A stretch of 56,630 nucleotides of DNA from contig JAQUPA010000002.1 of NCBI GenBank assembly GCA_028716825.1, positions 1-56,630 of the forward strand, given 5' to 3'. Origin of the DNA: Minisyncoccota bacterium (GTDB taxonomy: Bacteria; Patescibacteriota; Minisyncoccia; Minisyncoccales; GCA-002788555). Numbering within the stretch: the first letter of the stretch is position 1; each line of letters begins with the position of its first letter. The position numbers were made by a program, and so were the translations under genes. Positions 3,407 through 44,224 of this stretch are shown piece after piece. A model generated the notes under the pieces. It worked only from the letters and a program-made list of their open reading frames with translations, did not search any database and had not been told where the DNA came from.

Positions 3407-4093
3407 TTACAAGGAACTGTTTAGGACTGCGTTTGCTTCCTCCACCACTTCTTCTTCAATGACATCGCCGTTGAGATACTCGTAAAGTGGGGGATTTTCC
3501 AGGAAAGCTGCATTGGCCTTATCGCGTGGAAGAACCACTGGAGCAGTCAAGCTGCCCATATAGTACTTCGGTTCCCCTATCTCCTCAAATGGGAAACCAA
3601 GAAAGCGAATAAGACCAAGAACAACAACATCAAGGCTTGCAAACCAATGAGTGATGTTCTTTTCGTACCAAGTCTCTCGGTAAAGCGCTCTGATCAAGGC
3701 AAGAGATATTGAATGCCTCGCGTACATAGAACGCTCTTCCATGTTCAACGCCTTAAAGACGTCGGAACATATCAATCGAGAGATTTCGCAAGATTTTTCC
3801 GCTTTAGGCGGAAAATAGCATTCCGGAAAATCCCTATAGATTGGCAGAGGCAAGTCTTTTGTTGGATAGATCGCCCTCACCATTCCTATAATTCCACTTT
3901 TCACCGGCAATCCATCTCTATAGGCGATGAAGGTCGAAGATCTTTCGGGAGAATCATATTCGTCCTGTTCTGAACGAAATGAGTAATTGTTGGCTAACCA
4001 CCCTAGCTTCCCCACATAGATCTCGTATCGAAGTCGATATGACGCATTTAGCTCCTTTCTCGTCTCTGCTTTTTTTACCACTAAGACAGACAT
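3407..4093 (-). CDS. LuxI-like / N-acyl amino acid synthase-like acyltransferase (GNAT-related fold)
   Basis: YRLRYEIYVGKLGW near the N-terminus, acidic EQDEYD and EISRL resemble the autoinducer-synthase / N-acyl amino acid synthase family. ATG preceded by GGGAGGTGA. About 47-53% GC in sampled lines. Confidence 0.45.
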   Translation of the reverse strand: MSVLVVKKAETRKELNASYRLRYEIYVGKLGWLANNYSFRSEQDEYDSPERSSTFIAYRDGLPVKSGIIGMVRAIYPTKDLPLPIYRDFPECYFPPKAEKSCEISRLICSDVFKALNMEERSMYARHSISLALIRALYRETWYEKNITHWFASLDVVVLGLIRFLGFPFEEIGEPKYYMGSLTAPVVLPRDKANAAFLENPPLYEYLNGDVIEEEVVEEANAVLNSSL

Positions 4094-4194
4094 TTAGTTT
4101 CACCTCCCTTCTGCAGTCCTCTTATTGTAACGTGCTTGTGTATCTTTATTAAAAATGACTGCAATACATTATAATATTACAATCAGATATTTAA

Positions 4195-4223
4195 ATTCTA
4201 TCATATTTTATTAATAATGTCAA
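4195..4223 (-). promoter_or_regulatory. sigma70-like promoter for the LuxI-like gene
   Basis: minus strand TTGACA (4223-4218), 17-nt spacer, TAGAAT (4200-4195); about 100-nt leader. Confidence 0.6.
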
Positions 4224-4226
4224 TTT

Positions 4227-4258
4227 AAAAAAGCGGGGTAGCACTTTCGCACTACCCC
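4227..4258 (-). terminator. intrinsic terminator overlapping the ThiF-like stop codon
   Basis: minus strand GGGGTAG..CTACCCC stem followed by GCTTTTTT. Confidence 0.7.
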
Positions 4259-5019
4259 ATGGGATCGAATTGAACAACGAACGGGAGCTCATGACCCTTT
4301 ACGGTCTTGATTACGACAGAAACCGTAAGGATTGAAGCTATCCAAGCCGCTATCACTGGCTGAGGATAATGCTCAATTTCCCCTTCAATCACCTGTCCGA
4401 GAACAGGCAGAAAGTAGGGATTAAGCTCTACCCTCTTTGCCATGTTGAACATCAACTCCCAAACAGAGATTTTCTCGAGTTCCTGTGGGATAATCCCCTG
4501 AGGGATACCCAAAAGGTTTTCGAATGTCTCTCCGTTCGGAGTCAGGCAGAAAAGAACTGATCCCCACCCGACATCAATCGGGTAAAGAAAGATCTTTTTC
4601 TGCCGACGGCAAGCCCTTGCAAGCTCCAAAGAGGCGGAGATTCCCGGATCCGGGTCGATACCATCGATTACTATGTCGCACTTAGCAACAAAATCAGTGG
4701 CGTTGTCCGGTTTGATAAAATCCGCCCAGGCCTCTACCCTCACATCAGGATTAATCCTGGAAAGGACGTCTATCAGGACAATTGCTTTTTCCTTCCCAAC
4801 GTCCTCCAGAAAGAAAGCCTGGTGATTTAGGTTCGCTACCTCGACTGTATCAGGGTCAGCCCAAACGAAGTTTTCCACCCCAAGTCGGCACAAAGCCTCT
4901 GCTACGAACGATCCCATTCCGCAGCCAGCAATACCGACAGTGAGTTCTCGCAAGCTCCTCTGTTCCTCCTCTGAAAGGAGGCCAGCATTGCGAGAAATGA
5001 GTTCCTTATAACGGAACAT
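4252..5019 (-). CDS. ThiF/MoeB/HesA-family E1-like adenylyltransferase (adenylation domain only)
   Basis: Rossmann GIAGCGMGSFVAEAL followed by ADPDTVEVANLNHQ (the usual NLxRQ Arg is His). 255 aa with no peptide-clamp, rhodanese or CxxC extension. ATG with GAAAGGAGG. Confidence 0.7.
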   Translation of the reverse strand: MFRYKELISRNAGLLSEEEQRSLRELTVGIAGCGMGSFVAEALCRLGVENFVWADPDTVEVANLNHQAFFLEDVGKEKAIVLIDVLSRINPDVRVEAWADFIKPDNATDFVAKCDIVIDGIDPDPGISASLELARACRRQKKIFLYPIDVGWGSVLFCLTPNGETFENLLGIPQGIIPQELEKISVWELMFNMAKRVELNPYFLPVLGQVIEGEIEHYPQPVIAAWIASILTVSVVIKTVKGHELPFVVQFDPMG

Positions 5020-5157: not shown

Positions 5158-5203
5158 AATCCCAAGTTCCTCTGCTACTTTTGGATTAAGTTCTGTTGTA
5201 ATT
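5158..5203 (-). pseudogene. orphan duplicate of the last 15 codons of the NUDIX gene
   Basis: 45/46 nt identical to 7933-7978, which encode ITTELNPKVAEELGI of 7930..8364; no upstream continuation of that reading frame. Confidence 0.8.
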
Positions 5204-5976
5204 TAAATTTTTATTTCCTTAAACAATTTTTTATGAACTTTAATCACTCGATATGACTCTTTTAAAAAATCTTCAAAATTATCATTCTTAGTAATTTTAT
5301 TATATAGGTCGGTAAAATACTTTGGAACGGTTTTACCGCCTATTTTTATTTTTCTGTATTCCGTATAAAAAACTGCTTTTTTCTTTAATAATTTCTGGAT
5401 GCGACTATCATTTAAAACTATGGGCGCAATAATTTCACTTAAATGCCATTCAATATAGGGAAATTCAAATTTTTCAGAATTCATTTTTGGATGCATATTT
5501 TTCCATTTTTCAAAATACAAAAAATGACAACATTCATGCATAATAATCTCCATCGCATCTTTGATATTTTTGTAATTAAAATATATAAAAAAACTCCAGT
5601 CGTTTAAAAAACGCGGGCAAATAGGATTAATAGATATCATTGCTTTAATTATGTCTCTGTTTAAGGGCCAAGTGATTTGTAAAATTTCTGAAAGTAAAAT
5701 AAAAAAATCTTTTTCAGTTTTTCGCCAATTTTTTTCATATCTAACCTTATTTTTATTTATTATTTTTTGATTCTCTTCTCTGGTTTCAAAAATATATCCT
5801 TTTAAAAATTTGACTTTTTCCTTCTCGTTTTTAAAAGAAAAAACTTCTTTGATCTTAGGATGCTTTTTAATTATATACTTATCCCACCCCCAATTATCTT
5901 GAATTAAAAAACTGTGCATCCAATCAACTTCTTTAAGTAATGTAATGTTTATAAATTTTACTTTTGGAGTAAACAT
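5203..5976 (-). CDS. hypothetical protein with an HExxH motif (possible zinc metallopeptidase)
   Basis: IIMHECCHFLYFEKW contains HExxH; about 18% GC in a sampled line. ATG at 5976-5974 immediately follows the T-tract of the rSAM terminator. No family recognised. Confidence 0.35.
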   Translation of the reverse strand: MFTPKVKFINITLLKEVDWMHSFLIQDNWGWDKYIIKKHPKIKEVFSFKNEKEKVKFLKGYIFETREENQKIINKNKVRYEKNWRKTEKDFFILLSEILQITWPLNRDIIKAMISINPICPRFLNDWSFFIYFNYKNIKDAMEIIMHECCHFLYFEKWKNMHPKMNSEKFEFPYIEWHLSEIIAPIVLNDSRIQKLLKKKAVFYTEYRKIKIGGKTVPKYFTDLYNKITKNDNFEDFLKESYRVIKVHKKLFKEIKI

Positions 5977-6025
5977 ATAAAAACCCTAATTCTGTCAAGA
6001 TTATACCATAAATAGAATTAGGGTT
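5977..6025 (-). terminator. intrinsic terminator after the radical SAM/SPASM gene
   Basis: 12-bp perfect stem AACCCTAATTCT/AGAATTAGGGTT (6025-6014/5993-5982), 20-nt loop, then TTTTAT running into the next ATG. Confidence 0.65.
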
Positions 6026-6034
6026 AAAAGGAAT

Positions 6035-7438
6035 TTAATTTTCTGTCGAAGGAAAGGATGTTTTGGGATCCATTTTTTCTATTAGATCCCGAATCAGAAA
6101 TTCGGCCGTCGCTTTAGCATGAACACAGAAAATATCGTCTACCTCCCAAATACTACCTTTACTTTTGTAGGCACTGTAGGGACAACCTCCTCCGCAGATA
6201 CTTAAAGCAATACAGTTATAGCACTGTTCCATAAAAAGTGGGGAACGGAATTTCCATTCTTCCCAAATAGGATGATTGAAGGGATCAAAGGTAATATCTG
6301 GGTGAATAAAATATTTTCTACTTCCGCAATATCCCTGACAGACTCCAACCATACCATCTGGAGCTATAACTATTTGCTCGCCACAACCGCCACAATCATT
6401 GTAATAAATGTAGCCTTCAACAAAAGCATTTACTTTTCGCATTATTCTGTCTTCATAAATCCCCTTTTCTCTAAAGAAACGGTAACACTTAATAATCTGT
6501 TTAGCAACCTTTTCGGCATATACTTTAGCATCTCCACGAATACCTTCTATGCCAATACTTTCTATCAAAATGTTAAAGCTTATCGAGGTTGCACCCAATT
6601 CATTTACAAACCACTTAGAAATCTCTTCCAATTGTTCTACATTGTATTGACTGATTGTACAACAAATCCCCGTATTAACTCCGTTTTTAACAAGAAGCTG
6701 ATAGCCCCTTATGGTATCATCAAAAGATCCATGGCCATCACGACGTCTACGACACTTATCATGAATTTCCTTGGGACCATCCAACGAAACTGCCACATTA
6801 ACATTTCCAAAGCTTCTAAGCGTTAAAGCAATTGTTTCGTTAATTAATGCACCATTTGTATTTATTGTGATAAAGGTAGTGGAAGGAAGGGTTTTTTTAC
6901 TTTTTAGGCTTTCAATATACCTGAGCATTCTTTCAACTACCTCGAAGTTTAGAAATGGTTCGCCTCCATAGAATATTATCTGAGGAGTCTCTACGGTACT
7001 GTTTTTACCTATTAATTTTGCGAATAAATCAATACCGAACTGGGCAGTTTTTGTCGACATCTTAGAAAATTGGTAGTTTTCTGGTATTGCACCCTCAATG
7101 AAGCAATAAATGCAGGCAAGATTGCAAACATCTGTCATGAGCAGATAAAGTATACCAATTTCCTTGTTTCTAAATTTCGTTTGAATCTTTGCGTATTCTT
7201 CAAGGTCAAGACGTCGATCTAATGGAAAAACAAGCTTGTGTCTTGTTAGTTCGCTAACAAGATTATCGTCTAAAGAGTTAATTTGATCATAAGAGATAAT
7301 CTTGTGTTTAGCCTGCCTAAAAAGCTTTGCCGTTTCTTTATCAACAATAACTACATCTAAAGTAAGTGCATTGTATAAAGCCGTCAGGTTATTGATTCCT
7401 TCTACAAAATGACAAAAATCAGAAATTCTTAAATTCAT
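6035..7438 (-). CDS. radical SAM / SPASM-domain peptide-modifying enzyme
   Basis: CNLACIYC (C105, C109, C112 = CxxxCxxC); C-terminal CGGCGEQ and CYNCIALSICGGGC (Cx2Cx5Cx3C) SPASM pattern. The approximately 95-aa N-terminal extension is the size of a RiPP recognition element. ATG preceded by AGGAGG. Confidence 0.9.
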   Translation of the reverse strand: MNLRISDFCHFVEGINNLTALYNALTLDVVIVDKETAKLFRQAKHKIISYDQINSLDDNLVSELTRHKLVFPLDRRLDLEEYAKIQTKFRNKEIGILYLLMTDVCNLACIYCFIEGAIPENYQFSKMSTKTAQFGIDLFAKLIGKNSTVETPQIIFYGGEPFLNFEVVERMLRYIESLKSKKTLPSTTFITINTNGALINETIALTLRSFGNVNVAVSLDGPKEIHDKCRRRRDGHGSFDDTIRGYQLLVKNGVNTGICCTISQYNVEQLEEISKWFVNELGATSISFNILIESIGIEGIRGDAKVYAEKVAKQIIKCYRFFREKGIYEDRIMRKVNAFVEGYIYYNDCGGCGEQIVIAPDGMVGVCQGYCGSRKYFIHPDITFDPFNHPIWEEWKFRSPLFMEQCYNCIALSICGGGCPYSAYKSKGSIWEVDDIFCVHAKATAEFLIRDLIEKMDPKTSFPSTEN

Positions 7439-7525
7439 TATTCAACCTCCTGTAATCGTTCTTGACACTCTATATTATAAAAATGGGGCAAGAAGAATTC
7501 TCTCTTACCCCTGTGGCACAGATCA

Positions 7526-7702
7526 TCAACTACTCCTCGTTCTGGTCTTTGTCCCAGGAGAATTCTCGCAGTAACACGTTCCTCCGCAGATTCCCCCGCA
7601 ACGCATCTGCATTCCATCCTTTACTTTGCCCCTGATAAGGGCAAACTGTTTCTCCGTCGGCACTAGAACCACAACGTTCTTCGGTTCCTTCTTGTTTTCC
7701 AC
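7526..7702 (-). CDS. candidate Cys-rich RiPP precursor peptide (58 aa, not in the ORF track)
   Basis: GTG at 7702-7700 with AGGAGG 10 nt upstream, TGA at 7528-7526. Translation: MENKKEPKNVVVLVPTEKQFALIRGKVKDGMQMRCGGICGGTCYCENSPGTKTRTRSS. Ends 87 nt upstream of the rSAM/SPASM gene. Confidence 0.55.
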   Translation of the reverse strand: MENKKEPKNVVVLVPTEKQFALIRGKVKDGMQMRCGGICGGTCYCENSPGTKTRTRSS

Positions 7703-7798
7703 GTTCTCTCACCCTCCTTTCGCCTTCTTTATGTTCCTTCGCTTCCTTTTCTCTTATTAAAATTTCAAGGTTCAAAAAACTACTCAAAAACTACTAAT

Positions 7799-7826
7799 AT
7801 TTTATAATAATCACCCAAATTGTCAA
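7799..7826 (-). promoter_or_regulatory. sigma70-like promoter for the precursor-rSAM unit
   Basis: minus strand TTGACA (7826-7821), 16-nt spacer, TAAAAT (7804-7799), followed by a purine-rich leader. Confidence 0.55.
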
Positions 7827-7878
7827 ATATTTGGACAAAACAAGTATCATTTCATCAATTCATTTTTTATTAAAAGTC

Positions 7879-7906
7879 AAACCAAAAGCACGGGATTCCC
7901 CCGCGC
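7879..7906 (-). terminator. intrinsic terminator of the NUDIX gene (inside repeat copy B)
   Basis: minus strand GCGCGGG-GGAAT-CCCGTGC-TTTTGGTTTG. One pair is G-U on the minus-strand RNA and would be an A-C mismatch on the plus strand. Confidence 0.7.
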
Positions 7907-7929
7907 TAAGCTATTTTAAAGGTAAAGTG

Positions 7930-8364
7930 TTAAATCCCAAGTTCCTCTGCTACTTTTGGATTAAGCTCTGTTGTAATTAAACTCTTTATGGCTTCTGGTT
8001 TAACCCATTTAATTTCCGCTACTTCATGCGCTTCTTTTGGATTTGCAATGGGTTTTTCATTGTTTAGGGTACAAAGGTGATAAATAATTATAACTGAAAT
8101 CTGGGGATGAAAAGAAAGGTCTATTTGCTTTGTTGAAGTAACATCATATCCAGTCTCTGCTAAGACTTCCCTTCTTACGGCTTCCTCTCTTTCTTCGTTT
8201 GAAAATTGTTTTCCGCCGGGGAAAGCCCATTCTAAAATTGCGCCATCTTTACCTTTCTCCGGCTTTTTTCTTCTTATCATTAAAACCTCTCCTTTTTTAT
8301 TTAAAACTACACCTAAATTTATAAGCTTATTTGATTCTATAACTTTATTAGATTTTTTAGGCAT
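7930..8364 (-). CDS. NUDIX hydrolase
   Basis: Nudix box GGKQFSNEEREEAVRREVLAETGY (Gx5Ex7REUxEExGU). Confidence 0.85.
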   Translation of the reverse strand: MPKKSNKVIESNKLINLGVVLNKKGEVLMIRRKKPEKGKDGAILEWAFPGGKQFSNEEREEAVRREVLAETGYDVTSTKQIDLSFHPQISVIIIYHLCTLNNEKPIANPKEAHEVAEIKWVKPEAIKSLITTELNPKVAEELGI

Positions 8365-8434
8365 GTTGTTATCTTAATTTACTTTTAATTTACATTATAA
8401 AGATCTATTGTCAATAAAATTTAAACAATGAGTA

Positions 8435-8463
8435 TTGACAAATTCTTATTTTTTTTGTAAAAA
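8435..8463 (+). promoter_or_regulatory. plus-strand sigma70-like promoter
   Basis: TTGACA (8435-8440), 17-nt spacer, TAAAAA (8458-8463); the only convincing plus-strand promoter I found in the window. Confidence 0.5.
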
Positions 8464-8464
8464 A

Positions 8465-8945
8465 TATGATTGTGGAAAAACCATAACGTTCAGCTCTTTG
8501 AAAGGAAGATAAAAGACCACCGCTCGCTTAACGAAAAAGAAATCTGTAAGGAACGCTACAGCAATTCTGATTTCTGCAACAATTGTGACAGAATCTATCC
8601 CAATAAAAGGAATATAGAAAGTGTTCAAGATTAAGAAAGGAGTGATGCGCAACGAAAGTAGATCCAGATCCAGAAAAAACCTGCAAAGAGAACCAACCCG
8701 GTAAGTGGAAAGAATGTGGTAAACTTTGGGTCTCAAACGGAAACCAAAAACAAGCCATACAAAAGCTTACAGAGAACTGTCCAACAAGCTGCCCCTGGCA
8801 CTTCAATAACTCACCTTACGCAGTAAACAGAACAATAACAGCAATGGTGGTTAATTCTCACCGGGGTTCCTTTGACTGGTCTGAATGACAATCTTCCGGG
8901 GTAACAAATAGGGCCTAGTGTAATACGCTAGGCCTTTCGTCTTTT
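8465..8945 (+). ncRNA. structured non-coding RNA of unassigned class (weak rnpB-like blocks)
   Basis: About 480 nt with no credible ORF and higher GC than its flanks. It has a promoter upstream and a terminator at 8910-8945 (stem GGCCTAG/CTAGGCC extended by G-U pairs valid only on the plus strand, then TTTCGTCTTTT). Hairpins at 8470-8486 and 8538-8575. Confidence 0.45.
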
Positions 8946-8958
8946 AACTTATAAACTG

Positions 8959-10989
8959 CTATTGCCTTACTTTCCACTGAGGGTTTTTTTCGAGATTCTT
9001 TATAATATTTTTTTGAACTTTATCAACTTCTTTTGAAGAAAGGGTCTTTTTTTCTGACTGATAAATTATATGAAAAGACAGGCTTTTGTTTTTTTCTTTT
9101 TGATTGATATCCTCTTGATAAATGTCAAAAACTTCAACGTTTCTTATAATTTCTCCTCCTGTAGAATAAATTTTCTGGATAATTTCTCCTGCCAGAACAT
9201 TCTCAGGAACAACAACGGAAATGTCTCTTATCGTTTCTGGATAGACTGAAGGTTTTTTATACTCATGCTCCCCTTCAATTAAGTCTAGAAGTGTTTTAAA
9301 GTTAATTTCAAAAGCAAAAACGGGTATTTTTATATTATAAAAACCAAGAATTTTTTTTGATACTTCTCCCAAAAATCCTATCTTTTTATTTCCAGTCTCG
9401 ATTTCAGCTGATTTACCTTTCTCCCAGAAAATATTTTTTTCTTTTGTGTGACCGTAGAAAACATCAACCATCCCAAGTTCTTCAAAAAAACTTTCAAGAA
9501 GCCCTTTAAGCTCGTAAAATTCGGTTTTGCCTGCGATAATACCAGCAAAAAATCTTTTTTCTTTTTCTTTAAAAATATTTCCAATTTCAAAAAATCTAAC
9601 ATCTTTAAATCTCTTCTGGTTTAAAGTCACTGCTTTTAAGAGATTACAAATTAAAGAAAACCTTAGATATTTAGTATTTGAACTAATAGGGTTACCAAGT
9701 TCTGTTAGTTTTAATTTTTTGTTTAATTTTTTGAAAAAATCTCCTTCGTTATCTGAAATAAAAGAATAATTATAGGTCTCTGTAAAACCAAGCCCTTTCA
9801 TTAGTGTTCTTATTTTTTTAACCCATAAAAGATCTAAATTCTTTGGTGGCAATGCCTTTTGTAAAATTGAAAAAGTGGATGGTATGTTCTCGTATCCAAA
9901 AATCCTTCCAACTTCTTCAATTAAATCTTCTGGAATGCAAATATCTCGCCTAAAAGTAGGAATTTTTAAAATTAAGACAGCTTCTGATTCTCGCTGAATT
10001 TCAAATCCTAAATCCTTAAATATCTTTACTACTTTATCTTTTGAAATTTTAATTCCCAAGAGACTTCTTAGATAATTAAGATCAATTTTTATAATATTTG
10101 GGAAAGTCTTTTTTGGATAAAAATCCAAGACGCCAGATTTAATATCTCCCCCTGCAATTTCTTTTATAAGGCCTGCGACTTTATCTATCGCTTCTCTAGC
10201 TAAATTAGGGTCAATATTTGCGGAAAAACGCATTGAAGCATCTGTTTGTAATTTAAGTTTCTTTGACGTTCTATAAATACTAACACCGTTAAAATTCGCA
10301 GACTCTAAAATTATTCTCTTTGTATTTTTTTTAATTTCTGCTTTTTTCCCGCCCTTAATGCCTGCGATTGCAATTGGATATTTTGCATCAGCAATCACCA
10401 AATTATCTTTATCAAGGGTATATTTCTTGTCTTCTAAGGTGGTAATTTTTTCGCCTCTTTTTGCCTTTCTTACAATAATTTCTTTTTTTTCTTTTTTACC
10501 AAAAAGCTTTTCATAATCAAAAGCATGAAGAGGCTGGCCCGTTTCTAACATAATATAATTTGCAGCATCTACTATATTATTTATCGACTGAACACCACAG
10601 CTTTCTATCTTTTGTTTTAACCATTTTGGGGATGGAGCAACTTTAACATTATCAATTATCCTTGCGCAGTATCTCTGGCAAAGATCTTTACTTTTTATTT
10701 CAATCTTTAAAATATCAGCTGTTTTAATTTTCTTTTCTTCGCTAAATTTATATTCTGGTGCTTTAAATTTATATCCTAAGATTGCAGAAATTTCTCTTGC
10801 AATTCCAATATGAGAAGAACAATCCGGCATTCTGTCTGGTAAAACATCGATATCTAAAATCCAATCATCGCTTTTTTTAATTAAATCTTCTACTTCTAAT
10901 GTATGCATCATTAAAAGATCTGCCAATTTCTCTGGATTGGGTAATTTTTTTTGAAAAAATAATTGTAACCAGTTATATGAAAATTTCAT
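8959..10989 (-). CDS. pheT: phenylalanine--tRNA ligase beta subunit
   Basis: MKFSYNWL N-terminus, B3/4 and B5 region, position immediately after pheS. Confidence 0.9.
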   Translation of the reverse strand: MKFSYNWLQLFFQKKLPNPEKLADLLMMHTLEVEDLIKKSDDWILDIDVLPDRMPDCSSHIGIAREISAILGYKFKAPEYKFSEEKKIKTADILKIEIKSKDLCQRYCARIIDNVKVAPSPKWLKQKIESCGVQSINNIVDAANYIMLETGQPLHAFDYEKLFGKKEKKEIIVRKAKRGEKITTLEDKKYTLDKDNLVIADAKYPIAIAGIKGGKKAEIKKNTKRIILESANFNGVSIYRTSKKLKLQTDASMRFSANIDPNLAREAIDKVAGLIKEIAGGDIKSGVLDFYPKKTFPNIIKIDLNYLRSLLGIKISKDKVVKIFKDLGFEIQRESEAVLILKIPTFRRDICIPEDLIEEVGRIFGYENIPSTFSILQKALPPKNLDLLWVKKIRTLMKGLGFTETYNYSFISDNEGDFFKKLNKKLKLTELGNPISSNTKYLRFSLICNLLKAVTLNQKRFKDVRFFEIGNIFKEKEKRFFAGIIAGKTEFYELKGLLESFFEELGMVDVFYGHTKEKNIFWEKGKSAEIETGNKKIGFLGEVSKKILGFYNIKIPVFAFEINFKTLLDLIEGEHEYKKPSVYPETIRDISVVVPENVLAGEIIQKIYSTGGEIIRNVEVFDIYQEDINQKEKNKSLSFHIIYQSEKKTLSSKEVDKVQKNIIKNLEKNPQWKVRQ

Positions 10990-12020: not shown

Positions 12021-12332
12021 TTACTTTCTTGGCATTGTGGATAATTCTATTATTTTTTCGATATTATCAGTCTTTACTGTCTTTATACGGTGATTCTTGT
12101 CGCATTTTTGACACTTATAATAAATTATATATTCTCCTGATCTTTTCTCTGCTGAAATTGGCTCCATTAAGCCTTTGCAATCGCATTTTCTATCTCCTGG
12201 ATTTATATCTAAATGCTTTGACCAAAGGCATCTTGGACAATGATCAGTATAGCCCGTTCCCTTAACAGAAAAACCACATTTTTCACAGATAAAATCCTCT
12301 TTTTTCTTTTGAAATATTTTTTGCTTCAACAT
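12021..12332 (-). CDS. RNHCP-domain zinc-ribbon protein
   Basis: CEKCGF...HCPRCLWSKH...CDCKG...YKCQKCDKNH; layout matches my memory of the RNHCP domain family. Confidence 0.55.
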   Translation of the reverse strand: MLKQKIFQKKKEDFICEKCGFSVKGTGYTDHCPRCLWSKHLDINPGDRKCDCKGLMEPISAEKRSGEYIIYYKCQKCDKNHRIKTVKTDNIEKIIELSTMPRK

Positions 12333-12347
12333 TTTCTATAATAAAAG

Positions 12348-12389
12348 AAAAAACAGGCCCGAGGCCCTTTTTTCTTATAAAAATTTTGT
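12348..12389. repeat. 42-bp perfect direct repeat, copy 1
   Basis: AAAAAACAGGCCCGAGGCCCTTTTTTCTTATAAAAATTTTGT, identical to 16612-16653. It contains a GGCC/GGCC hairpin flanked by A6/T6, plus the stop and last four codons (TKFL) of 12375..13439. Confidence 0.95.
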
Positions 12390-13439
12390 CTCATTGTTTA
12401 TAACTTTTATAAATAATTCCTCTTCCCAATTTTTTCTAAATATTATATTTTTACTAGGTATTATTTTATCTAAAAAAAGAATGTAATTTGAATGTTTAAT
12501 TGCTCTTTTCGATTTTGGAAACAAAGCAATTTTTATTGGTTTTCCTCCTCTTTTTTTTACTTTTCGTTCAAGATAGTCAAGTGTATTACTTGAATAAGAC
12601 CTATCGATGATTGAGATTTTTTTATTTCTTAAATCTTTTCTGAATAATTCCATTTCTTTTGTCATATCTAAACTTAAATGACACTCCCACAACATTATCT
12701 TCTTTTTTATTCCTATCTCCTCTATAAAACCAAGGGCATATTTCAATCCTGCCTTTGGTATAAAAATATAAATGTCGCTTTTCGGTAATGTCTTAAAAAA
12801 ACCAAAAATAGCAAACCTAGGAAAGTTAATTTTCCCAAAAATAGAATATTCTTTTTTGAGACGGGAATAAAAATCTTTTGTCTTAAAACAGCACCTTTTA
12901 ATTTCTTTATTTTTTATTTTAATTTCTCGTTCTTTTATTATAGCCTTTATTTTTTTTAATTCTTTTTTCCAATGATTTGTTTTTTTAATTTTATAATAAA
13001 TAAATTTGGGAATTTGATTTATTCTATTATCAGAACCAGCGATTCTAATTTCTAAGTTAGAATGTGGTCCTTCTAAATAAACAATTTCGAGATTCTTAAA
13101 TCTAGATGAAATGTCTTTTTTAAACGAATAATGAACTTTTTCAGAAGTGAAAAGTTTATGCAGAGTAAATATCTCTGCCAAATTTAAAGTTGGATTTATA
13201 TAATTTTCACTGAGATCACAAAGCACTACCTCTGGTGCACGTAAAATATACCTATATTTTCCGGGATAAAAAGACCATCCCTTGCTCAGTTTATCTGCAA
13301 GTTTATCTCTATCTGTAGTAATGTCTATAAAATTACTTTTAAAATGGGGCTTATTGTAAACAAGAATACCATTTTTTAATTCCTGAACTGGCTTAAGTGT
13401 ATTATAAGTTTCGTCTAATAAACCTTCTTTATCTATCAT
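12375..13439 (-). CDS. hypothetical protein, weak phosphoribosyltransferase-like C-terminus
   Basis: KKISIIDRSYSSNTLDYL loosely resembles a type I PRTase PRPP loop. ATGA start/stop overlap with 13436..14698. The last four codons lie in the 42-bp repeat. Confidence 0.35.
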   Translation of the reverse strand: MIDKEGLLDETYNTLKPVQELKNGILVYNKPHFKSNFIDITTDRDKLADKLSKGWSFYPGKYRYILRAPEVVLCDLSENYINPTLNLAEIFTLHKLFTSEKVHYSFKKDISSRFKNLEIVYLEGPHSNLEIRIAGSDNRINQIPKFIYYKIKKTNHWKKELKKIKAIIKEREIKIKNKEIKRCCFKTKDFYSRLKKEYSIFGKINFPRFAIFGFFKTLPKSDIYIFIPKAGLKYALGFIEEIGIKKKIMLWECHLSLDMTKEMELFRKDLRNKKISIIDRSYSSNTLDYLERKVKKRGGKPIKIALFPKSKRAIKHSNYILFLDKIIPSKNIIFRKNWEEELFIKVINNETKFL

Positions 13440-14698
13440 AAAAATTTATAAAATTCATTTGCTATGCTCGATCTTGAACTTAAGGTACAACAAAAAGGCT
13501 TAAATTTATAATTTTTATAGATGCTTACTAATTTTTCTGTGAAATCTAAAATTTTCTGAGGGGGCAATGGATTACGATTACCCCAAACTGAACCTGGTCT
13601 AGGAAAAAAAACAGTATAATCGGAAACAACACCCTTCTTTGCAAGGGTTTCTATCCCAGCTATTAAACCACTCAATGGTTCTGTGCCTAATACGAAATTC
13701 GTTCTTGTTCTTCCTTTCCCAAAAATATCGGCACTATATATCAAAGACTCTAACATTCTATCATAGCCATAAATTTTTTCTTTTCCCGGACAAACTTTTT
13801 TGAAAATTTTTTTATTGAAACATTCTAAATTAAAACAAATGTATTTAAACCCATAATCAAATACCTTTTCAATATATTCAAAATTAAGAGGGGGCATTAA
13901 ATTAAAATAACTATCAACCTTAGAAAATTCTATTTTATCTTTTATAGAATCAACTATATCAAAAATCATTTTCCATTCAAAATCTAAATCCGAAATGTTT
14001 CCAGAAATTATCGAAAAGTGAAAATGAGGTCCAATTTTATCCCTTAATAAAAGATCGACGCACTGAGAAATTCTCTTTAGCGTTTTATCTCTATAGTAAT
14101 ACCACCAATTTTTATAATCTCCGTTAAATTTATTTTTAATCTCAAAAACGTTTGGTTTAAACCCCTCAAAACCTAATCTTTTGGGATTTGCCCCACAAAA
14201 CTTACACTGTTCTCCAGATATCCAGTTTTCACAACCATCATAAGGTATTATAGAAATTCTATCTACGCCTACTACACTTACAAATTCATCTACGGGTATA
14301 CCATTAATCTTCTTTTTATTATATGGATATAGAGGAACTGCCTTAACAGAAACGGGCATTCTTTTGTCTGTTTTTTTGTCTAATATTAAGAATTTTTTAT
14401 TTTTGACGAGACAAATAAAAGGAGATTCTTTCCTAAAATACACCTTTACTATTGATTTTTGATTACCATCCTCTAAGATCAATTCATCCGGAATAAAATT
14501 TCTTTTATCTGTTTTGACAGATATAAAATGCCTATCAGAAACTTTAATTTTATTGGCTTTATATTTTAAGGAAAATTCAGGAAATCCTTCTTGAATCGAA
14601 GAAAAATCAAAATCAAGACCAAAAGTCAATAAGAGAAGTTTAGTGTTTAGAACAAAAGAGGAAGTAGGGTTTTTTAGATAATGTTCAAAAATTTTCAT
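13436..14698 (-). CDS. radical-SAM-like protein with a non-canonical Cx8Cx2C cluster motif
   Basis: DGCENWISGEQCKFCG. Later NLECFNKKIFKKVCPGK and TNFVLGTEP resemble LipA/BioB-type barrel strands. About 150-aa N-terminal extension. Confidence 0.45.
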   Translation of the reverse strand: MKIFEHYLKNPTSSFVLNTKLLLLTFGLDFDFSSIQEGFPEFSLKYKANKIKVSDRHFISVKTDKRNFIPDELILEDGNQKSIVKVYFRKESPFICLVKNKKFLILDKKTDKRMPVSVKAVPLYPYNKKKINGIPVDEFVSVVGVDRISIIPYDGCENWISGEQCKFCGANPKRLGFEGFKPNVFEIKNKFNGDYKNWWYYYRDKTLKRISQCVDLLLRDKIGPHFHFSIISGNISDLDFEWKMIFDIVDSIKDKIEFSKVDSYFNLMPPLNFEYIEKVFDYGFKYICFNLECFNKKIFKKVCPGKEKIYGYDRMLESLIYSADIFGKGRTRTNFVLGTEPLSGLIAGIETLAKKGVVSDYTVFFPRPGSVWGNRNPLPPQKILDFTEKLVSIYKNYKFKPFCCTLSSRSSIANEFYKFL

Positions 14699-14704
14699 TT
14701 TAGT

Positions 14705-15250
14705 CTATTTTTTTGAAAAAGATATGTTGGCCCTTTTCGTTTTTTTGTCTTCCCAATATTCATTCCATAAATCCCAATATGTATCATTTATTTTTTCCTT
14801 AAAATTTAATCCGAGTTTCTTAGAAATAATTTTAATTTTCTGGGGTGAACCTTCTATTTCTAAAAATGTTCCTATTTTTGGTAACTTGTCCATAACAACT
14901 TCACAACCTCCAATTAACCATTTTTCTCTGTATTTTTCCATTGTATTAACTTTAGTAAAACCAAGTTCTTTCAAAATAGTATTCATTTTTTCTATATCGA
15001 AAATTTCAAGTTCTATTTCCTCCCTTTCTTTAAAATGTTTATTTATAATTTTCTTTTTTAAGGTAATTGTATTTTTAAAACCTTTTCTAGTTCGCAAAAA
15101 TGTACCTTTTTTAGAAAGAAAGTCGTCTGGTTTTTCAAAACGAAATGTTCTTTCAAAAGCTTTTCCTAAATATTTTGTTTTCTCTTTTTGAAGAATTTTC
15201 CTAACCCCTGAAGGTTTTCTAATTTTGAATTTTACCTCAATTTCTTTCAT
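14705..15250 (-). CDS. CYTH-domain protein (triphosphate tunnel metalloenzyme; CyaB/ThTPase-like)
   Basis: N-terminal EIEVKFKI = ExExK signature; 181 aa. Confidence 0.65.
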   Translation of the reverse strand: MKEIEVKFKIRKPSGVRKILQKEKTKYLGKAFERTFRFEKPDDFLSKKGTFLRTRKGFKNTITLKKKIINKHFKEREEIELEIFDIEKMNTILKELGFTKVNTMEKYREKWLIGGCEVVMDKLPKIGTFLEIEGSPQKIKIISKKLGLNFKEKINDTYWDLWNEYWEDKKTKRANISFSKK

Positions 15251-15314
15251 ATAGTTTTTATTTTAAAAATATCAAAAATGAATTTAAAAGTCAATTTTTT
15301 ATTTTCTATAAAAT

Positions 15315-15346
15315 AGCCTCCAAGCCTTACTTAAGGCTTGGAGGCT
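15315..15346 (-). terminator. 15-bp perfect hairpin overlapping the GreA-like stop codon
   Basis: AGCCTCCAAGCCTTA / TAAGGCTTGGAGGCT, followed on the minus strand by ATTTTAT and then a TTGACT -35-like element upstream of the CYTH gene. Confidence 0.65.
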
Positions 15347-15872
15347 CAACCTCCTGAACGAAGGATCTTATATCGACAATTCGGACTCTTCTAGTCCTCC
15401 CTAAGGGAAGAATTATTTTTACTTCCTCGCCCCTCTTTTTTCCAATTAAAGGAGCAATAAGAGGAGCCTTGTAAGAAATAAATCCTTCTTCGCTTTTGCA
15501 ATGTGGGTTATGGACGGTATCAAAAGATCCAACTACTTTCCAACTTTCCTCTTTACCTTCTTCGTCACGTATTGTTACTTCGGTCCCTATCCACACGCTT
15601 TTGAAATCTATACCTCTTATTTCCTCTTCAATTATCGCAGGCGCATTTAGAGGACCAAGTATCTGATAATACCTCTTTCTTAGTTTTTCCTGGTCCTGAA
15701 GAGTATAATCCCAATGGGGATTATCATGCCAATACCCTCCTGTATCATATGCTTGACGTAATGCTCGAGGTATCTCCTTACTTAAGATATCCTCTATTCT
15801 TTTAAGCTCTTCTCGCATGAAGATATAAGTATCTCTTAAAAGATAGTTCTTCTCCTTAATCATTGTCTTCAC
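15327..15872 (-). CDS. divergent GreA/GreB-family protein
   Basis: N-terminal coiled-coil-like region, then C-terminal FISYKAPLIAPLIGKKRGEEVKI resembling the GreA/B C-terminal domain. Starts 6 nt after the kinase-like gene. Confidence 0.5.
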   Translation of the reverse strand: MKTMIKEKNYLLRDTYIFMREELKRIEDILSKEIPRALRQAYDTGGYWHDNPHWDYTLQDQEKLRKRYYQILGPLNAPAIIEEEIRGIDFKSVWIGTEVTIRDEEGKEESWKVVGSFDTVHNPHCKSEEGFISYKAPLIAPLIGKKRGEEVKIILPLGRTRRVRIVDIRSFVQEVEPPSLK

Positions 15873-15878
15873 CCTTCC

Positions 15879-16433
15879 TTATAAACTAATTTCTTGCATT
15901 ATTCTGTTTAAAGATTGTTCAGGTTCTTCATTGCTTGTATCTATAAAGATATACCCGCCTTTCTCTTGAAAATAGTCTATGTATTTCTGCCGGAAAAAGC
16001 TATCTTCTTTTATTGTGTCGTATTTTGTTTTTTTCCCTCTATTCTCTATTCTTTCTTTTCTCTCTGGTTCGTTCGAGGTAAAAAGGAAAAAAGAAATATC
16101 TGGTTTCTCGATTAAAAACGAACCTAAAAATTCGTCTTTTATTTCTAATCCTAAGATCTTATGAATCGCGAGAGTTGAATCAATATATCTATCACATATT
16201 ATAATATGTGAATCCCTAATACTTTTTATTTGATCAGAAACAAAGACATTGCCCATTAAATAATAAAGAAATCTCACCCGAAGACTTGCCTCCTCGTCCA
16301 TAAATGATCTAAGTTCTCCTATTCTGAAAATAGAAGGGGGATTGACCACATACTTTGCTTTTAGTTCAGAAGCAAGCATCTTCGCTAAAGTCGTTTTTCC
16401 TCCACCATCAATACCTTCAAAAAGTATAAACAT
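15879..16433 (-). CDS. dTMP-kinase-like P-loop nucleotide kinase
   Basis: FILFEGIDGGGKTT P-loop and DRYIDST (DRY) motif. I prefer the ATG at 16433-16431 (GAAAGGAGG 8 nt upstream) over the track's TTG at 16463. Confidence 0.7.
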   Translation of the reverse strand: MFILFEGIDGGGKTTLAKMLASELKAKYVVNPPSIFRIGELRSFMDEEASLRVRFLYYLMGNVFVSDQIKSIRDSHIIICDRYIDSTLAIHKILGLEIKDEFLGSFLIEKPDISFFLFTSNEPERKERIENRGKKTKYDTIKEDSFFRQKYIDYFQEKGGYIFIDTSNEEPEQSLNRIMQEISL

Positions 16434-16611
16434 TGCACAACCTCCTTTCTCCGTTTCTGGCAAAAACGTATATTAATTCATCGGATTATTTTTTTAAATT
16501 ACTATCACCATTTTTGATAAATGATTAACTATTTTTTTTATATAATAAAAAATAATTACCGTCAATAAAGTAATCTATATTAAAAAATCTTGCCATCCCT
16601 TTTTATTCTTT

Positions 16612-16653
16612 AAAAAACAGGCCCGAGGCCCTTTTTTCTTATAAAAATTTTGT
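16612..16653. repeat. 42-bp perfect direct repeat, copy 2
   Basis: identical to 12348-12389; here it is the genuine 3' end (TKFL + stop) and downstream hairpin of the HD gene. Confidence 0.95.
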
Positions 16654-17247
16654 TTTGGGGGCGTATTTTTTATTTAATTCAACCCACCATTTATCAGTAT
16701 CAATTTCTTTTAACTTTTGGCCAAGTTTTTTTGCTGTGTCGGTTTTAAATCTTTCAAGAGTGAATTCAAGCCATTTTTCTGCTTTTTTATTGCCAAGTTC
16801 AAAACACTCTTTTTCAGTTAGCATTTCAGCTAGAATATCAGCGTCTTTTGTAACTTTTGCTTCTTTTGTCTCTCCTTTAAAATATTCTTTAAATAAATCT
16901 TTAAAATTAAAATCCTGAATATTGTGGTCTTCTGCAATTTCTTCAATGATTTTTAAATCATTGGAAGGAGAACTATAATATCTGTTTATAAGGTTGTGCT
17001 CGCCCGAGCGAGCCTCTATCAAATCATGAATAATCGCCATTTTTATAACCTTGTCTATGTCTACCTTTTCTTTCTTAGCTAAAATCCACGCAAAAATAAT
17101 AGTATAAAAACTATGTTCTGCAACATTTTCTTTAATAGGCCCTTTTAAATAATTATAAGAAGCACGAGGAATATATTTTAAAATTCGCGCCTCTAAAATA
17201 AGATTAACAAGATCTTCAATACAATCCTTTTTCTCTCCTTTGAACAT
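16639..17247 (-). CDS. HD-domain phosphohydrolase (YfbR-like 5'-deoxynucleotidase family)
   Basis: AEHSF ... IIHDLIEARSGE. The track start (TTG at 17277) overlaps the upstream gene; the ATG at 17247-17245 lies 11 nt after that gene's stop. Confidence 0.65.
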   Translation of the reverse strand: MFKGEKKDCIEDLVNLILEARILKYIPRASYNYLKGPIKENVAEHSFYTIIFAWILAKKEKVDIDKVIKMAIIHDLIEARSGEHNLINRYYSSPSNDLKIIEEIAEDHNIQDFNFKDLFKEYFKGETKEAKVTKDADILAEMLTEKECFELGNKKAEKWLEFTLERFKTDTAKKLGQKLKEIDTDKWWVELNKKYAPKTKFL

Positions 17248-17258
17248 ATAAATGAATT

Positions 17259-17954
17259 TTAAGGAATACAGATACAACCTACAAGTTTTCTACTGCCGTC
17301 ATATTCTGAAAGCGTACCACCTGAATAACCCAAGTCATTACTGCAATATCTTTGACATCCAGAAATACAGTAGAGTAAATTTTTCTGGTTAGATAAATCT
17401 TCATGATTACACATAGGTTGATGTGCTATTATCGTGCTTATAGGCACAACCTTCCATTCACTTCCATTTGTGCTTTTTATTTCTCCGTTTGCATGTATTG
17501 TACTAAGCCTGCTTAATCCAGTTGGATCTACTTTATAGTAAGAATTGTTTGTATCATAAAAAAGCTGAGAGTTTACGGCTCCACCAATAAGAGCACTGCC
17601 ATCAATTCCAATATTGTTTGACCATTGAAAAATAGCAGAATTTCCCAAGCGACTTGAGCTAGTCCATAGAGGTATACGATTTGAAGTTCCACTTCCTGTA
17701 ACTGAACCCGTAGGCCAACTTGTTATACAATTTCCCCTAAGACAAACCCTATTTGTTGCACTTAGAGTGGGTGAACTTACCTCTCCATTAACATTCAAAT
17801 TTCTTTTGAATATATAGTTGCCATTTGCAAATGAACCTGGCTCTACCTCGTCCGCAGAATGAAAAACGCCTTCTCTTGCAGCATAGACATACACACCGGC
17901 CAAACAAAGAACAAAAATGATAACGGAAAGAAAAATTATTTTATATTTTGGCAT
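17259..17954 (-). CDS. hypothetical secreted/anchored protein with a Cys-rich C-terminus
   Basis: N-terminal signal-anchor IIFLSVIIFVLCLAGVYVYA; C-terminal CISGCQRYC...GCICIP. Confidence 0.4.
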   Translation of the reverse strand: MPKYKIIFLSVIIFVLCLAGVYVYAAREGVFHSADEVEPGSFANGNYIFKRNLNVNGEVSSPTLSATNRVCLRGNCITSWPTGSVTGSGTSNRIPLWTSSSRLGNSAIFQWSNNIGIDGSALIGGAVNSQLFYDTNNSYYKVDPTGLSRLSTIHANGEIKSTNGSEWKVVPISTIIAHQPMCNHEDLSNQKNLLYCISGCQRYCSNDLGYSGGTLSEYDGSRKLVGCICIP

Positions 17955-43111: not shown

Positions 43112-44224
43112 CTATTTCCAAATAATAGTATCGTATTTCCTTAAAGATTTATTACCCGCTCTATCTATATATTGAACATAAACATATTTTTTGCCTTTTT
43201 TTGAATTACCACCATATCTAGAATTGTTTAAACGCCAAGAGTATCTTCTTTTATACCTCTTCCAACCTGTCCACCTCCTTGCATTATTAGAAAATCGCAT
43301 ATAACGAACACCACTCCCCTTGTCAGAAGCTTTAAGATAAAGAGTAGTCTTTGCTGATTTGGTATATTTCGCTCTATTATTAATTCTGATTAAACCGGTA
43401 GGAAACGTTTTATCGTAAACAATAGAATCGGAACTTACAGAGCAAATATTCCCATGGTTATCTTTAAATTGAATATAAACTCGTTTAGTTCCTTGTTTGG
43501 TATTCCCTCCATAAGTTGAACTTGCTAAGTTCCACCTATAACTTGTGCCATACTTTTTCCAACCCGTCCACTTTGATGCATTGTTGGAAAATCGCATATA
43601 TTTTGTTCCCGATACAGCATTAATTCCAAGAGTTACATTTGGAGAACGAGTATATTTTGCTCCACTATTAATTCTCACAGAACCAAAGTAAACAGAAATC
43701 GCTACATTATCAACATCAAAAAGGTCTTCTGAGTAAAAAATTAAAGATATATTTCTTCCCTTGTTTTTTGTAATGTCTATGTAACTTCTTGTGTACTCTA
43801 AATTATTATATTTAATCCCTCCATTTTCAGTAGTCTTTATTGCTAAAAGTACATCACTATCTGAATCAAAAATACCCATGGCTGCACCTTTTTTATAAGC
43901 ATTCCAATAAACGTAATCAAAAGAAAATAGTATTTTATAAATATTCTGAGGAAGGGTTATTCCTGTTTGAAATATACTATCGCCAGGACTAAGACTTGCT
44001 AACCAATTGCCAGAAGCAGCCCATGCGGTGTTTTTTTCTATTACCCACCCTTCACAATCTTCATAATCTCCCCAATCGCAACCCTCAAGCCAACCAACAC
44101 CAGGACCAGATTCAAAACCGCCATTTACTACACTCCAAGTAGCAGCTTTTACTATTTTTGGTCCAAAAAATAAAACTGCTAAAATTGTAATCACCAAAAA
44201 TGATTTTGAAAAATTTTTTTTCAT
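43112..44224 (-). CDS. secreted protein: N-terminal jelly-roll/CBM-like region plus two tandem ~95-aa repeats
   Basis: Signal peptide; NGGFESGPGVGW as in CBM-like domains. Repeats begin RINSGAKYTRSPNVTL... and RINNRAKYTKSAKTTL..., each with YMRFSNNA.(K/R)WTGWK.Y. Confidence 0.5.
   Translation of the reverse strand: MKKNFSKSFLVITILAVLFFGPKIVKAATWSVVNGGFESGPGVGWLEGCDWGDYEDCEGWVIEKNTAWAASGNWLASLSPGDSIFQTGITLPQNIYKILFSFDYVYWNAYKKGAAMGIFDSDSDVLLAIKTTENGGIKYNNLEYTRSYIDITKNKGRNISLIFYSEDLFDVDNVAISVYFGSVRINSGAKYTRSPNVTLGINAVSGTKYMRFSNNASKWTGWKKYGTSYRWNLASSTYGGNTKQGTKRVYIQFKDNHGNICSVSSDSIVYDKTFPTGLIRINNRAKYTKSAKTTLYLKASDKGSGVRYMRFSNNARRWTGWKRYKRRYSWRLNNSRYGGNSKKGKKYVYVQYIDRAGNKSLRKYDTIIWK

Follow-up and report, generated by a model that had tools for sequence, protein, structure and literature searches.

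We have analysed a stretch of DNA of 56,630 nucleotides, contig JAQUPA010000002.1 of a Minisyncoccota bacterium (referred to below as the window), in which nearly all of the genes are on the minus strand. The subject of the analysis is a block of five genes, the cassette, that lies between a gene for an HD-family phosphohydrolase (HD) and one for an RNHCP-domain protein (RNHCP) and is bracketed by two copies of a 42-bp direct repeat made of the 3' end of HD and its terminator. Listed as they are transcribed, the genes and other features are trpS, orf231, HD, repeat, a 148-bp leader, a Tmk-like kinase gene, a GreA/GreB-like gene, a hairpin, CYTH, a radical-SAM gene (rSAM), orf354, repeat, RNHCP, pheS and pheT. 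The features of the block and its borders are as follows.

12021-12332, minus strand: RNHCP-domain gene, the downstream neighbour, directly after HD in empty alleles
12348-12389: left 42-bp repeat copy; on the minus strand it gives TKFL and TAA to orf354, then hairpin and T-tract
12375-13439, minus strand: orf354, with a phosphoribosyltransferase (PRTase)-like C-terminal domain; last four codons and stop from the repeat
12390-16611, minus strand: unique part of the insert, 4,222 bp, missing from the empty allele L001
13436-14698, minus strand: variant radical-SAM gene (NCBIfam NF045502 variant_rSAM, E 1e-56, 192.5 bits against a cut-off of 125)
14705-15250, minus strand: CYTH, class IV adenylate cyclase-like (PF01928, E 4.5e-15; TIGR00318, 74 bits against a cut-off of 57.95)
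15315-15346, minus strand: hairpin resembling a terminator (14-bp stem), where the GreA-like gene ends
15327-15872, minus strand: GreA/GreB-like gene (PF01272, E 2.4e-14; under the GreA, GreB and Rnk equivalog cut-offs)
15879-16463, minus strand: thymidylate-kinase-like P-loop nucleotide kinase (PF02223, E 2.7e-19; TIGR00041, 71.9 bits, below the cut-off of 83.25)
16464-16611, minus strand: AT-rich leader, 148 bp, between the right repeat and the kinase gene
16612-16653: right 42-bp repeat copy, in which HD natively ends (last four codons, stop, terminator)
16639-17277, minus strand: HD_3/YfbR-like phosphohydrolase gene, whose 3' end is duplicated

The 42-bp repeat and the alleles of the site

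The 42-mer, AAAAAACAGGCCCGAGGCCCTTTTTTCTTATAAAAATTTTGT, is present at 12348-12389 and 16612-16653, and the two copies, spaced 4264 bp apart, are identical at 42 of 42 positions. Read on the minus strand it gives ACA AAA TTT TTA TAA (T K F L stop) and then GAAAAAAGGGCCTCGGGCCTGTTTTTT, a terminator-like hairpin with a T-tract that was detected in both copies (fold of -14 kcal/mol, z = -2.1). The repeat terminates exactly at the last T of the terminator. An earlier reading of this DNA made from the sequence only had described the perfect repeat, with its position and spacing, the right copy as the end of HD (TKFL, stop and hairpin), the left copy as the end of the unrelated open reading frame (ORF) 12375-13439, and five genes in between; all of this is borne out. 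In the window the 42-mer has no third copy at up to 3 mismatches (0 of 100 shuffles gave any match). A search at up to 8 mismatches in the 414 kb of sequence examined returned only the two window sites and the single copy of L001, described below, and the GC core of the 42-mer (up to 2 mismatches) is likewise confined to these in the 414 kb. The 42-mer was not found in IMG/VR either. These counts rule out a dispersed terminator repeat in the sequence examined.

The empty site that the sequence-only reading had predicted, with HD running directly into RNHCP and one copy of the 42-mer, was found in L001, a 2,586-bp contig of the European Nucleotide Archive (ENA) obtained by an exact-protein look-up with RNHCP; the same look-up with HD (212 aa), CYTH, orf231 and the NUDIX protein of a second block (see below) gave no match. 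This metagenome contig is ~99.5% identical to the window and carries orf231, HD, RNHCP and pheS in a row. Using blastn, L001 1-1386 aligns with window 17997-16612 at 99.06% and L001 1345-2586 with window 12389-11148 at 99.84%. These alignments have exactly 42 bp in common, namely the 42-mer, whose single copy in L001 aligns to both window copies. The window has 4,264 bp in addition to L001, that is one repeat copy and 4,222 unique bases. Since the alignments overlap by one 42-mer, the 4,264 bp represent a presence/absence polymorphism at strain level with a 42-bp target duplication, of which the window is the occupied allele. The claim that an accessory insertion is bracketed here by a duplicated gene 3' end and terminator is thus supported by an actual empty allele. 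The HD gene, of 212 aa in the window, was called in L001 as 202 aa with a start at 17247. In a Logan contig from a second sample, L002, CYTH-rSAM-orf354 was found at 99.96% with an identical junction between orf354 and the repeat; the contig breaks inside the repeat, where a break is expected at k = 31.

The flanks of the insert differ from L001 at 2 positions on one side and 13 on the HD side (Fisher p = 0.009). Ten of the 13 HD-side mismatches cluster at 17658-17910, in the N-terminal half of orf231, a protein without domain match; this stretch is locally hypervariable.

More distant relatives show further states of the site. In L036 (HD 85% identical as protein) the site is empty, a diverged form of the predicted arrangement, and the gap between HD and RNHCP holds a homologous terminator, AAAAAACAGGCCAAAGGCC...CTATAAAAATTTTGT. 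In L035, whose backbone is 90.6-91% identical to the window in nucleotides and whose HD is 92% identical as protein, the order is HD-CYTH-RNHCP; the other four cassette genes are missing, and CYTH is 87% identical to the window CYTH in nucleotides. There is no direct repeat at the L035 site and the GC hairpin after HD is absent. The 148-bp leader aligned with the L035 HD-CYTH spacer no better than did shuffles. In L037 (HD 67% identical) the neighbours of HD differ. The HD/RNHCP site therefore has at least three allelic states: empty (L001, L036), CYTH only (L035) and five genes (window, L002). The presence of CYTH at the same site in L035, a lineage ~9% diverged, indicates that part of the cassette was resident before that split. 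After such a split ~4 differences between the repeat copies would be expected and none is seen, so the duplication probably arose later than the cassette came to reside at the locus.

Cargo of the block and mobility functions

The last gene of the block, orf354, encodes 354 aa, is unrelated to HD and has no Pfam match. Its AlphaFold2 model has a mean pLDDT (predicted local distance difference test) of 89.8, and Foldseek matched the C-terminal ~100 aa to OPRT/HGXPRT, PRTases and phosphoribosyl pyrophosphate (PRPP) synthetases with a best E of 6e-4. Homologues form 36 or so clusters, every one of ~350 aa, and their native C-termini lie 1-5 residues past a conserved FIKxVNNE motif. In the window, the repeat-derived TKFL comes directly after the E of this motif. 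Because the homologues end 1-5 residues past the point where the repeat starts, the joint falls within the last native codons of orf354.

As to the other cargo, a search of PDB sequences with the radical-SAM protein gave nothing useful. The hairpin at the end of the GreA-like gene separates two transcription units of the cassette, Tmk-GreA and CYTH-rSAM-orf354, which is consistent with the occurrence of CYTH-rSAM-orf354 without Tmk and GreA at other loci. The Tmk-like kinase matches the PADLOC models PDC-M51B and VakA; rSAM, CYTH, orf354 and the GreA-like gene have no PADLOC match, and a known anti-phage system was rejected on this ground. No relative of the 148-bp leader was found in any locus examined, and an Rfam scan of block and leader returned the GreA-end hairpin only, below threshold, and no structured RNA. 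A literature search for this combination of cargo genes gave nothing relevant. With a kinase, a triphosphate-tunnel enzyme, a PRTase-like protein and an rSAM, the cargo could possibly serve a nucleotide-directed pathway.

The sequence-only reading had put the block at 13-20% GC in 12375-15250 and about 37% in 15327-16433, and had taken the two as departures from the backbone in both directions. Measured over their full lengths, the values are 27.2% and 35.8%, compared with a window mean of 32.2% (standard deviation (sd) 3.2% per kb), and the 13% is the minimum of single 60-nt lines. Both halves are only ~1-1.5 sd off the window mean; the compositional argument is much weaker than claimed, and strong compositional foreignness is ruled out.

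Scans of the five genes with Pfam and NCBIfam found no integrase, transposase, recombinase or prophage gene, and the block, in which the sequence-only reading had seen no recombinase, is without a Pfam recombinase domain. Pfam domains of integrases and transposases are also lacking from all minus-strand ORFs of at least 110 aa in the 56.6-kb window. Neither a replication gene (Pfam, NCBIfam) nor a restriction or modification gene (Pfam, NCBIfam, PADLOC) was found in the block. There are no terminal inverted repeats at its ends, the sole inverted match being the palindromic terminator within the 42-bp repeat. With neither inverted repeats nor transposase, and with a duplication of 42 bp, a transposon is ruled out. 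So is a tRNA-targeted island: there is no tRNA at the insertion site, and the five tRNAs of the window are all at 38-47 kb. An integron cassette was also rejected, as the 42-mer and its flanks by reading lack a GTTRRRY core (a formal attC model was not run) and the scanned window ORFs lack a Pfam integrase domain. The rest of the window is cellular backbone (ileS, infB, mraZ/mraW, a penicillin-binding protein (PBP), two-component systems, RecO and PilB/C/M/N); it thus encodes type IV pilus genes and RecO.

A phage or plasmid vehicle is likewise ruled against. For the protein orf354 the phage collection gave no match and IMG/VR no relative, the cassette cluster is missing from both of these collections, and the plasmid collection gave only distant radical-SAM relatives of 19-24% identity.

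Cassettes at other loci and the second block of the window

Homologues and related loci were drawn from Patescibacteria-type metagenome assemblies, and 32 loci with cassette relatives were obtained by scanning collections of genomes and metagenomes. Their gene content and the direct repeats that bracket them are listed here.

L013/L014: Tmk-GreA-CYTH-rSAM-orf354; repeat of 69 bp, 97%
L021/L027: Tmk-GreA-CYTH-rSAM-orf354; repeat of 95 bp, 80%
L008/L012: Tmk-CYTH-rSAM-orf354; repeat of 32 bp, 94%
L009/L010: CYTH-rSAM-orf354; repeat of 49 bp, 100%, in L009, and likewise in L010, where it is cut by the contig end
L020, L022, L024, L025: CYTH-rSAM-orf354
L018: repeat of 119 bp, 80%
Saccharibacteria, a Nanoarchaeota assembly and an uncultured archaeon: rSAM-orf354 core

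In none of the other loci scanned are HD, RNHCP or pheS the neighbours of the cassette, which forms a coherent cargo and has come to lie at numerous sites on chromosomes. The core pair rSAM-orf354 is common to small-genome bacteria and DPANN-type archaea. It was observed at 33-39% protein identity in L003, L004, L005 and L006, which come from Nanoarchaeota, an uncultured archaeon and, twice, Saccharibacteria. At L038 (8706-11068) the rSAM/orf354 pair adjoins tgt and queA, and at L040 (7216-11196) the cassette lies in gene fragments inside a fatty-acid/acetyl-CoA carboxylase operon; both are without flanking repeats.

The bracketing repeats of the other cassettes, 32-119 bp long and in at least five contexts, consist of local sequence and are mutually unrelated, and none were found at L011, L020, L024, L038, L040 or the distant loci. 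The repeat of L013 starts at the T-tract of a terminator. Those of L018/L025 and L021/L027 belong to multi-copy, promoter-bearing intergenic families. Repeats also bracket neighbouring blocks at three loci, and these contain promoter or leader sequence.

L015, 1943-2022 and 4915-4993: 80 bp, 95%
L026, 1307-1404 and 3535-3633: 99 bp, 90%
L025, 3402-3553 and 5707-5855: 152 bp, 81%

The repeat of L009 consists of the last 16 codons and the stop of a convergent murA. Its left copy abuts the stop codon of an upstream oxidoreductase gene, and directly past this copy the oxidoreductase 3' end recurs over 38 bp at 87% identity; it reads EKPSFEELILKS where the native end reads EKPTFEELVLKS. The joint has an AAAT microhomology and the layout is A-B-A'-cassette-B. 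From this layout it follows that a diverged relative supplied the incoming DNA together with its flank of this locus, and that one side was joined illegitimately.

A self-comparison of the whole window by blastn revealed three significant repeats besides the 42-mer pair: a 57-bp pair at 5158-5214 and 7933-7989, a gene-internal repeat at 43.2-43.6 kb and the palindromic hairpin at 15315-15346. The 57-bp pair belongs to a second accessory block, in the order NUDIX (7930-8364), small ORFs, radical-SAM (6035-7438), orf257 (5203-5976), a copy of the NUDIX 3' end, and ThiF (4252-5019).

5158-5214: left copy, a remnant of the NUDIX 3' end; at its inner edge it holds the last three codons and stop of orf257
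7933-7989: right copy, the native NUDIX 3' end of the gene at 7930-8364

The pair is 57 bp at 93% without gaps and ~125 bp with gaps, the longer alignment spanning the last ~16 codons, a diverged terminator hairpin and GTTTGACTTTT. The polarity is that of the 42-mer: a copy of the upstream gene's end with its terminator closes the block on the far side, and the final gene of the block reads into this copy. The likeness of the 5.1-8.0 kb block to the five-gene block, noticed in the sequence-only reading, thus holds, with the NUDIX 3' end repeated past the block. From the two blocks that reading had proposed a recurrent capture mechanism. The architecture does recur, in the NUDIX block and in other genomes, but nothing shows a dedicated mechanism, since lengths, sequences and boundaries of the repeats differ and L038, L040, L011, L020 and L024 have no repeats at all.

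Several observations concern the second block itself. Window 5294-8346, comprising NUDIX and block, is 97.7% identical to L035 against 90.6-91% for the backbone, which suggests that the NUDIX segment may have been exchanged recently between two species-level lineages. Window 8347-8964 has 618 bp (41% GC, small ORFs and a terminator) where L035 has 30 bp, and the pheT-pheS gap of L035 (locus 12648-13097) has 446 bp in addition to the window; neither of these two indels has a long direct repeat. At 3407-5019 the GC content is 45% (window mean 32%), and this part encodes a FeeM-like N-acyl amino acid synthase and the ThiF-family protein; if the neighbouring radical-SAM and small ORFs are included, the whole resembles a peptide-modification cluster that was acquired. 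ThiF-like genes and relatives of the radical-SAM gene at 6035-7438 adjoin the cassette elsewhere (L013 6518-7273, L015 2327-3475, L026 434-3440, L027 14194-14715), and the two accessory blocks of the window may be functionally or historically linked.

Origin of the insertion

Insertion with long target duplication has been described by Nobusato et al. (2000, Gene 259:99) and by Furuta, Abe & Kobayashi (2010, NAR, PMC2853133). The latter screened for inserts of <20 kb with a duplication of >30 bp and no mobile-element genes. Most of their cases are from naturally competent species and they are gathered around restriction-modification genes, whose DNA breakage was the proposed cause, the mechanism being left open (PMC2853133). 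A route by tandem duplication plus homologous recombination has been discussed (PMC3457768). The present insert, of 4,222 bp, carries no integrase, transposase or prophage gene in the Pfam and NCBIfam scans and is missing from the close relative L001, to which both flanks align (99.06% and 99.84%); its repeats are 42 bp long, and their sequence, which occurs once in the empty L001, is neither a tRNA-derived attachment (att) site nor dispersed in the 414 kb examined or in IMG/VR. In layout it agrees with the published structural criteria and the kind of event is therefore already known. As in the published cases, the length and sequence of the repeat vary from case to case; most hosts there are naturally competent, and type IV pilus genes are found in this window. 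One of the 46-bp repeats of H. influenzae overlaps 15 bp of the 3' end of a gene (PMC2853133), just as the 42-mer does with 15 bp of the HD 3' end. The differences are a Patescibacteria-type host, a last cargo gene that is fused to the duplicated end and borrows its stop and terminator, and the restriction-modification cargo of the PMC2853133 screen, which the five-gene block lacks. The present case joins this known class with a cargo without restriction or modification genes and in a genome of candidate phyla radiation (CPR) type.

Other known systems share part of this picture. Integrase-mediated islands and prophages at gene 3' ends also have repeats that regenerate the target gene and a precise empty site. 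They differ in that here no integrase was found, the att is not conserved, the ends of the cassette vary and the target is not a tRNA; there is neither an adjacent tyrosine or serine recombinase nor an att core shared between insertions. The minimal mobile elements of Neisseria, reportedly introduced by Saunders and Snyder in 2002 and taken up by Snyder et al. in 2007, are said to be sites between a conserved gene pair with cassettes that vary from strain to strain. They are exchanged by transformation and flanking homology and are not defined by flanking target duplications. The HD/RNHCP site resembles them in its three states, in the lack of mobility genes and in a host that plausibly takes up DNA; for a possible exchange by flanking homology, the pilus genes and RecO are indirect evidence. 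Homology-facilitated illegitimate recombination, which de Vries and Wackernagel reportedly described in natural transformation in 2002, combines a homologous anchor with a microhomology joint and fits L009 and the orf354 joint. It differs in its usual result, a deletion of recipient DNA rather than a duplication.

The explanation that we favour, and consider rather probable, is that the five-gene cassette, which has no recombinase and no defined ends of its own, is an insertion with long target duplication, produced by recombination or repair functions of the host, through an illegitimate and a homologous step, on DNA that came from an occupied allele at this locus. One illegitimate joint would have connected orf354 codon 350 to HD codon -4, and one homologous exchange, within or beside the HD 3' end and terminator, would have taken place between the occupied and the empty allele. 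The duplication itself is shown: 15 coding bases of HD with its stop and terminator stand on both sides of the cassette, HD is intact, and orf354 has gained four codons, a stop and a terminator. We infer that the pathway could have been any of three: a looped-out circle that re-integrates Campbell-style, homology-facilitated illegitimate recombination following DNA uptake, or a tandem duplication resolved against the empty allele. The same product would result from a template switch in replication or from a staggered break that is filled in, and these are indistinguishable from the favoured route here. Once formed, the perfect 42-bp repeats would permit precise loss, restoring the L001 state, and also re-acquisition by recombination over a short homology. 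Selection would retain only joints after which neither gene lacks a stop codon or terminator, and the position of the joints at gene ends and terminators is probably explained by such selection for intact genes.

An illegitimate joint combined with a homologous one is favoured by the relic in L009, by the position of the joint within orf354 and by a perfect, young repeat around a cassette that has long been resident. The lack of inverted ends, recombinase and tRNA, the variation of repeats and boundaries and the instances without repeats all argue against a transposase or one site-specific recombinase. Host recombination rather than a dedicated capture machine is the most likely origin.

Several points weigh against this explanation. 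Neither a donor molecule nor a circular or tandem junction was observed, and, unlike L009, the window has no relic of a donor flank in its 148-bp leader (alignments no better than shuffles). Two alleles do not tell an insertion in the lineage of the window from a deletion in that of L001. A single crossover within 42 bp is inefficient, and a recombinase could possibly be encoded elsewhere in the genome, of which 56.6 kb were examined. The repeats of L018/L025 and L021/L027 are weak evidence for target duplication because they are multi-copy intergenic families. A recombination breakpoint read from the divergence of the flanks is suggestive (p = 0.009) but driven mostly by the cluster in orf231, and is therefore poor evidence.

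The alternative of a non-autonomous integrative element takes the 42 bp as the core of attL and attR and supposes that a recombinase encoded elsewhere integrated a circle into the HD 3' end; the element would resemble integrase-less satellite islands. Perfect direct repeats that regenerate a gene 3' end are the classical signature of site-specific integration, the precise empty site was found, and the part of the genome examined leaves room for such an enzyme. We nevertheless think it quite unlikely. Neither the block nor the scanned window ORFs hold a Pfam integrase domain, and a single recombinase with a single att would not be sufficient for homologous cassettes whose repeats are unrelated, of 32-119 bp, or lacking, and whose boundaries vary and here cut into orf354. 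Moreover, CYTH of L035 occupies the same site without repeats, and relatives of the 42-mer and orf354 were not found in IMG/VR, nor of orf354 among phages, the plasmid relatives of rSAM being distant. The old residence at the site, together with a perfect and hence apparently young repeat, could instead be accommodated by a vertically inherited cassette on which gene conversion or slippage copied the HD end onto orf354, L001 being a later deletion; that one boundary of the repeat is the end of the terminator T-tract would also suit such ectopic copying. This course of events seems improbable to us: conversion requires prior similarity between the two ends and none is demonstrable, the shared HD-terminator-RNHCP arrangement of L036 and the conspecific L001, both empty, is more simply taken as the ancestral target, and the donor-flank relic of L009 is left unexplained.

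A further possibility, which we hold to be unlikely, is a recurrent, recombinase-free capture associated with terminators, for example by template switching at intrinsic terminators during replication or repair. The incoming block would be given, on its far side, a copy of the upstream gene's last codons and terminator, and would so receive a stop and terminator automatically. It is favoured by the polarity of both window blocks, by the end of the 42-mer at the last T and by the start of the L013 repeat at a T-tract. Finally, an assembly could have threaded a 4.26-kb circle sharing the 42-mer into the chromosomal path; a loop at a shared 42-mer would assemble to exactly this picture, and the L002 contig does break inside the repeat. 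Such an artefact is very improbable, given that a break at a 42-bp repeat is expected at k = 31 regardless of the biology, that the block has no replication gene and that the 29-kb contig of L035 independently places CYTH between HD and RNHCP. Identity over 42 bp between circle and chromosome would in any case need the same explanation.

[quoted passage not shown] The HD/RNHCP site offers a clean case: the repeat is perfect, the empty site is exact, a sister lineage keeps a decayed remnant and mobility genes were not found. A cargo other than restriction-modification genes weakens the idea that DNA breaks made by the cargo are required, and the L009 relic with its microhomology points to ordinary illegitimate and homologous recombination between occupied and empty alleles. 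The case also shows one way of gene turnover in CPR bacteria, where classical mobile elements are few. The cargo itself, a conserved, uncharacterised and apparently nucleotide-centred cluster of five genes with a core pair that is common with DPANN-type archaea, is a lead for work on function.

Two further features of the window lie apart from these blocks. The gene-internal repeat at 43162-43600 is a 142-nt unit repeated at a spacing of 297 nt with 70% identity, inside a 370-aa ORF without Pfam match. On the minus strand at 1264-1659, a PD-(D/E)XK_3 nuclease gene of 131 aa is bracketed by 37-nt inverted repeats (1205-1241 and 1667-1703) that are 84% complementary and rich in ACGAATTTAC-like motifs; this unit, 1205-1703, may be a small selfish insert.

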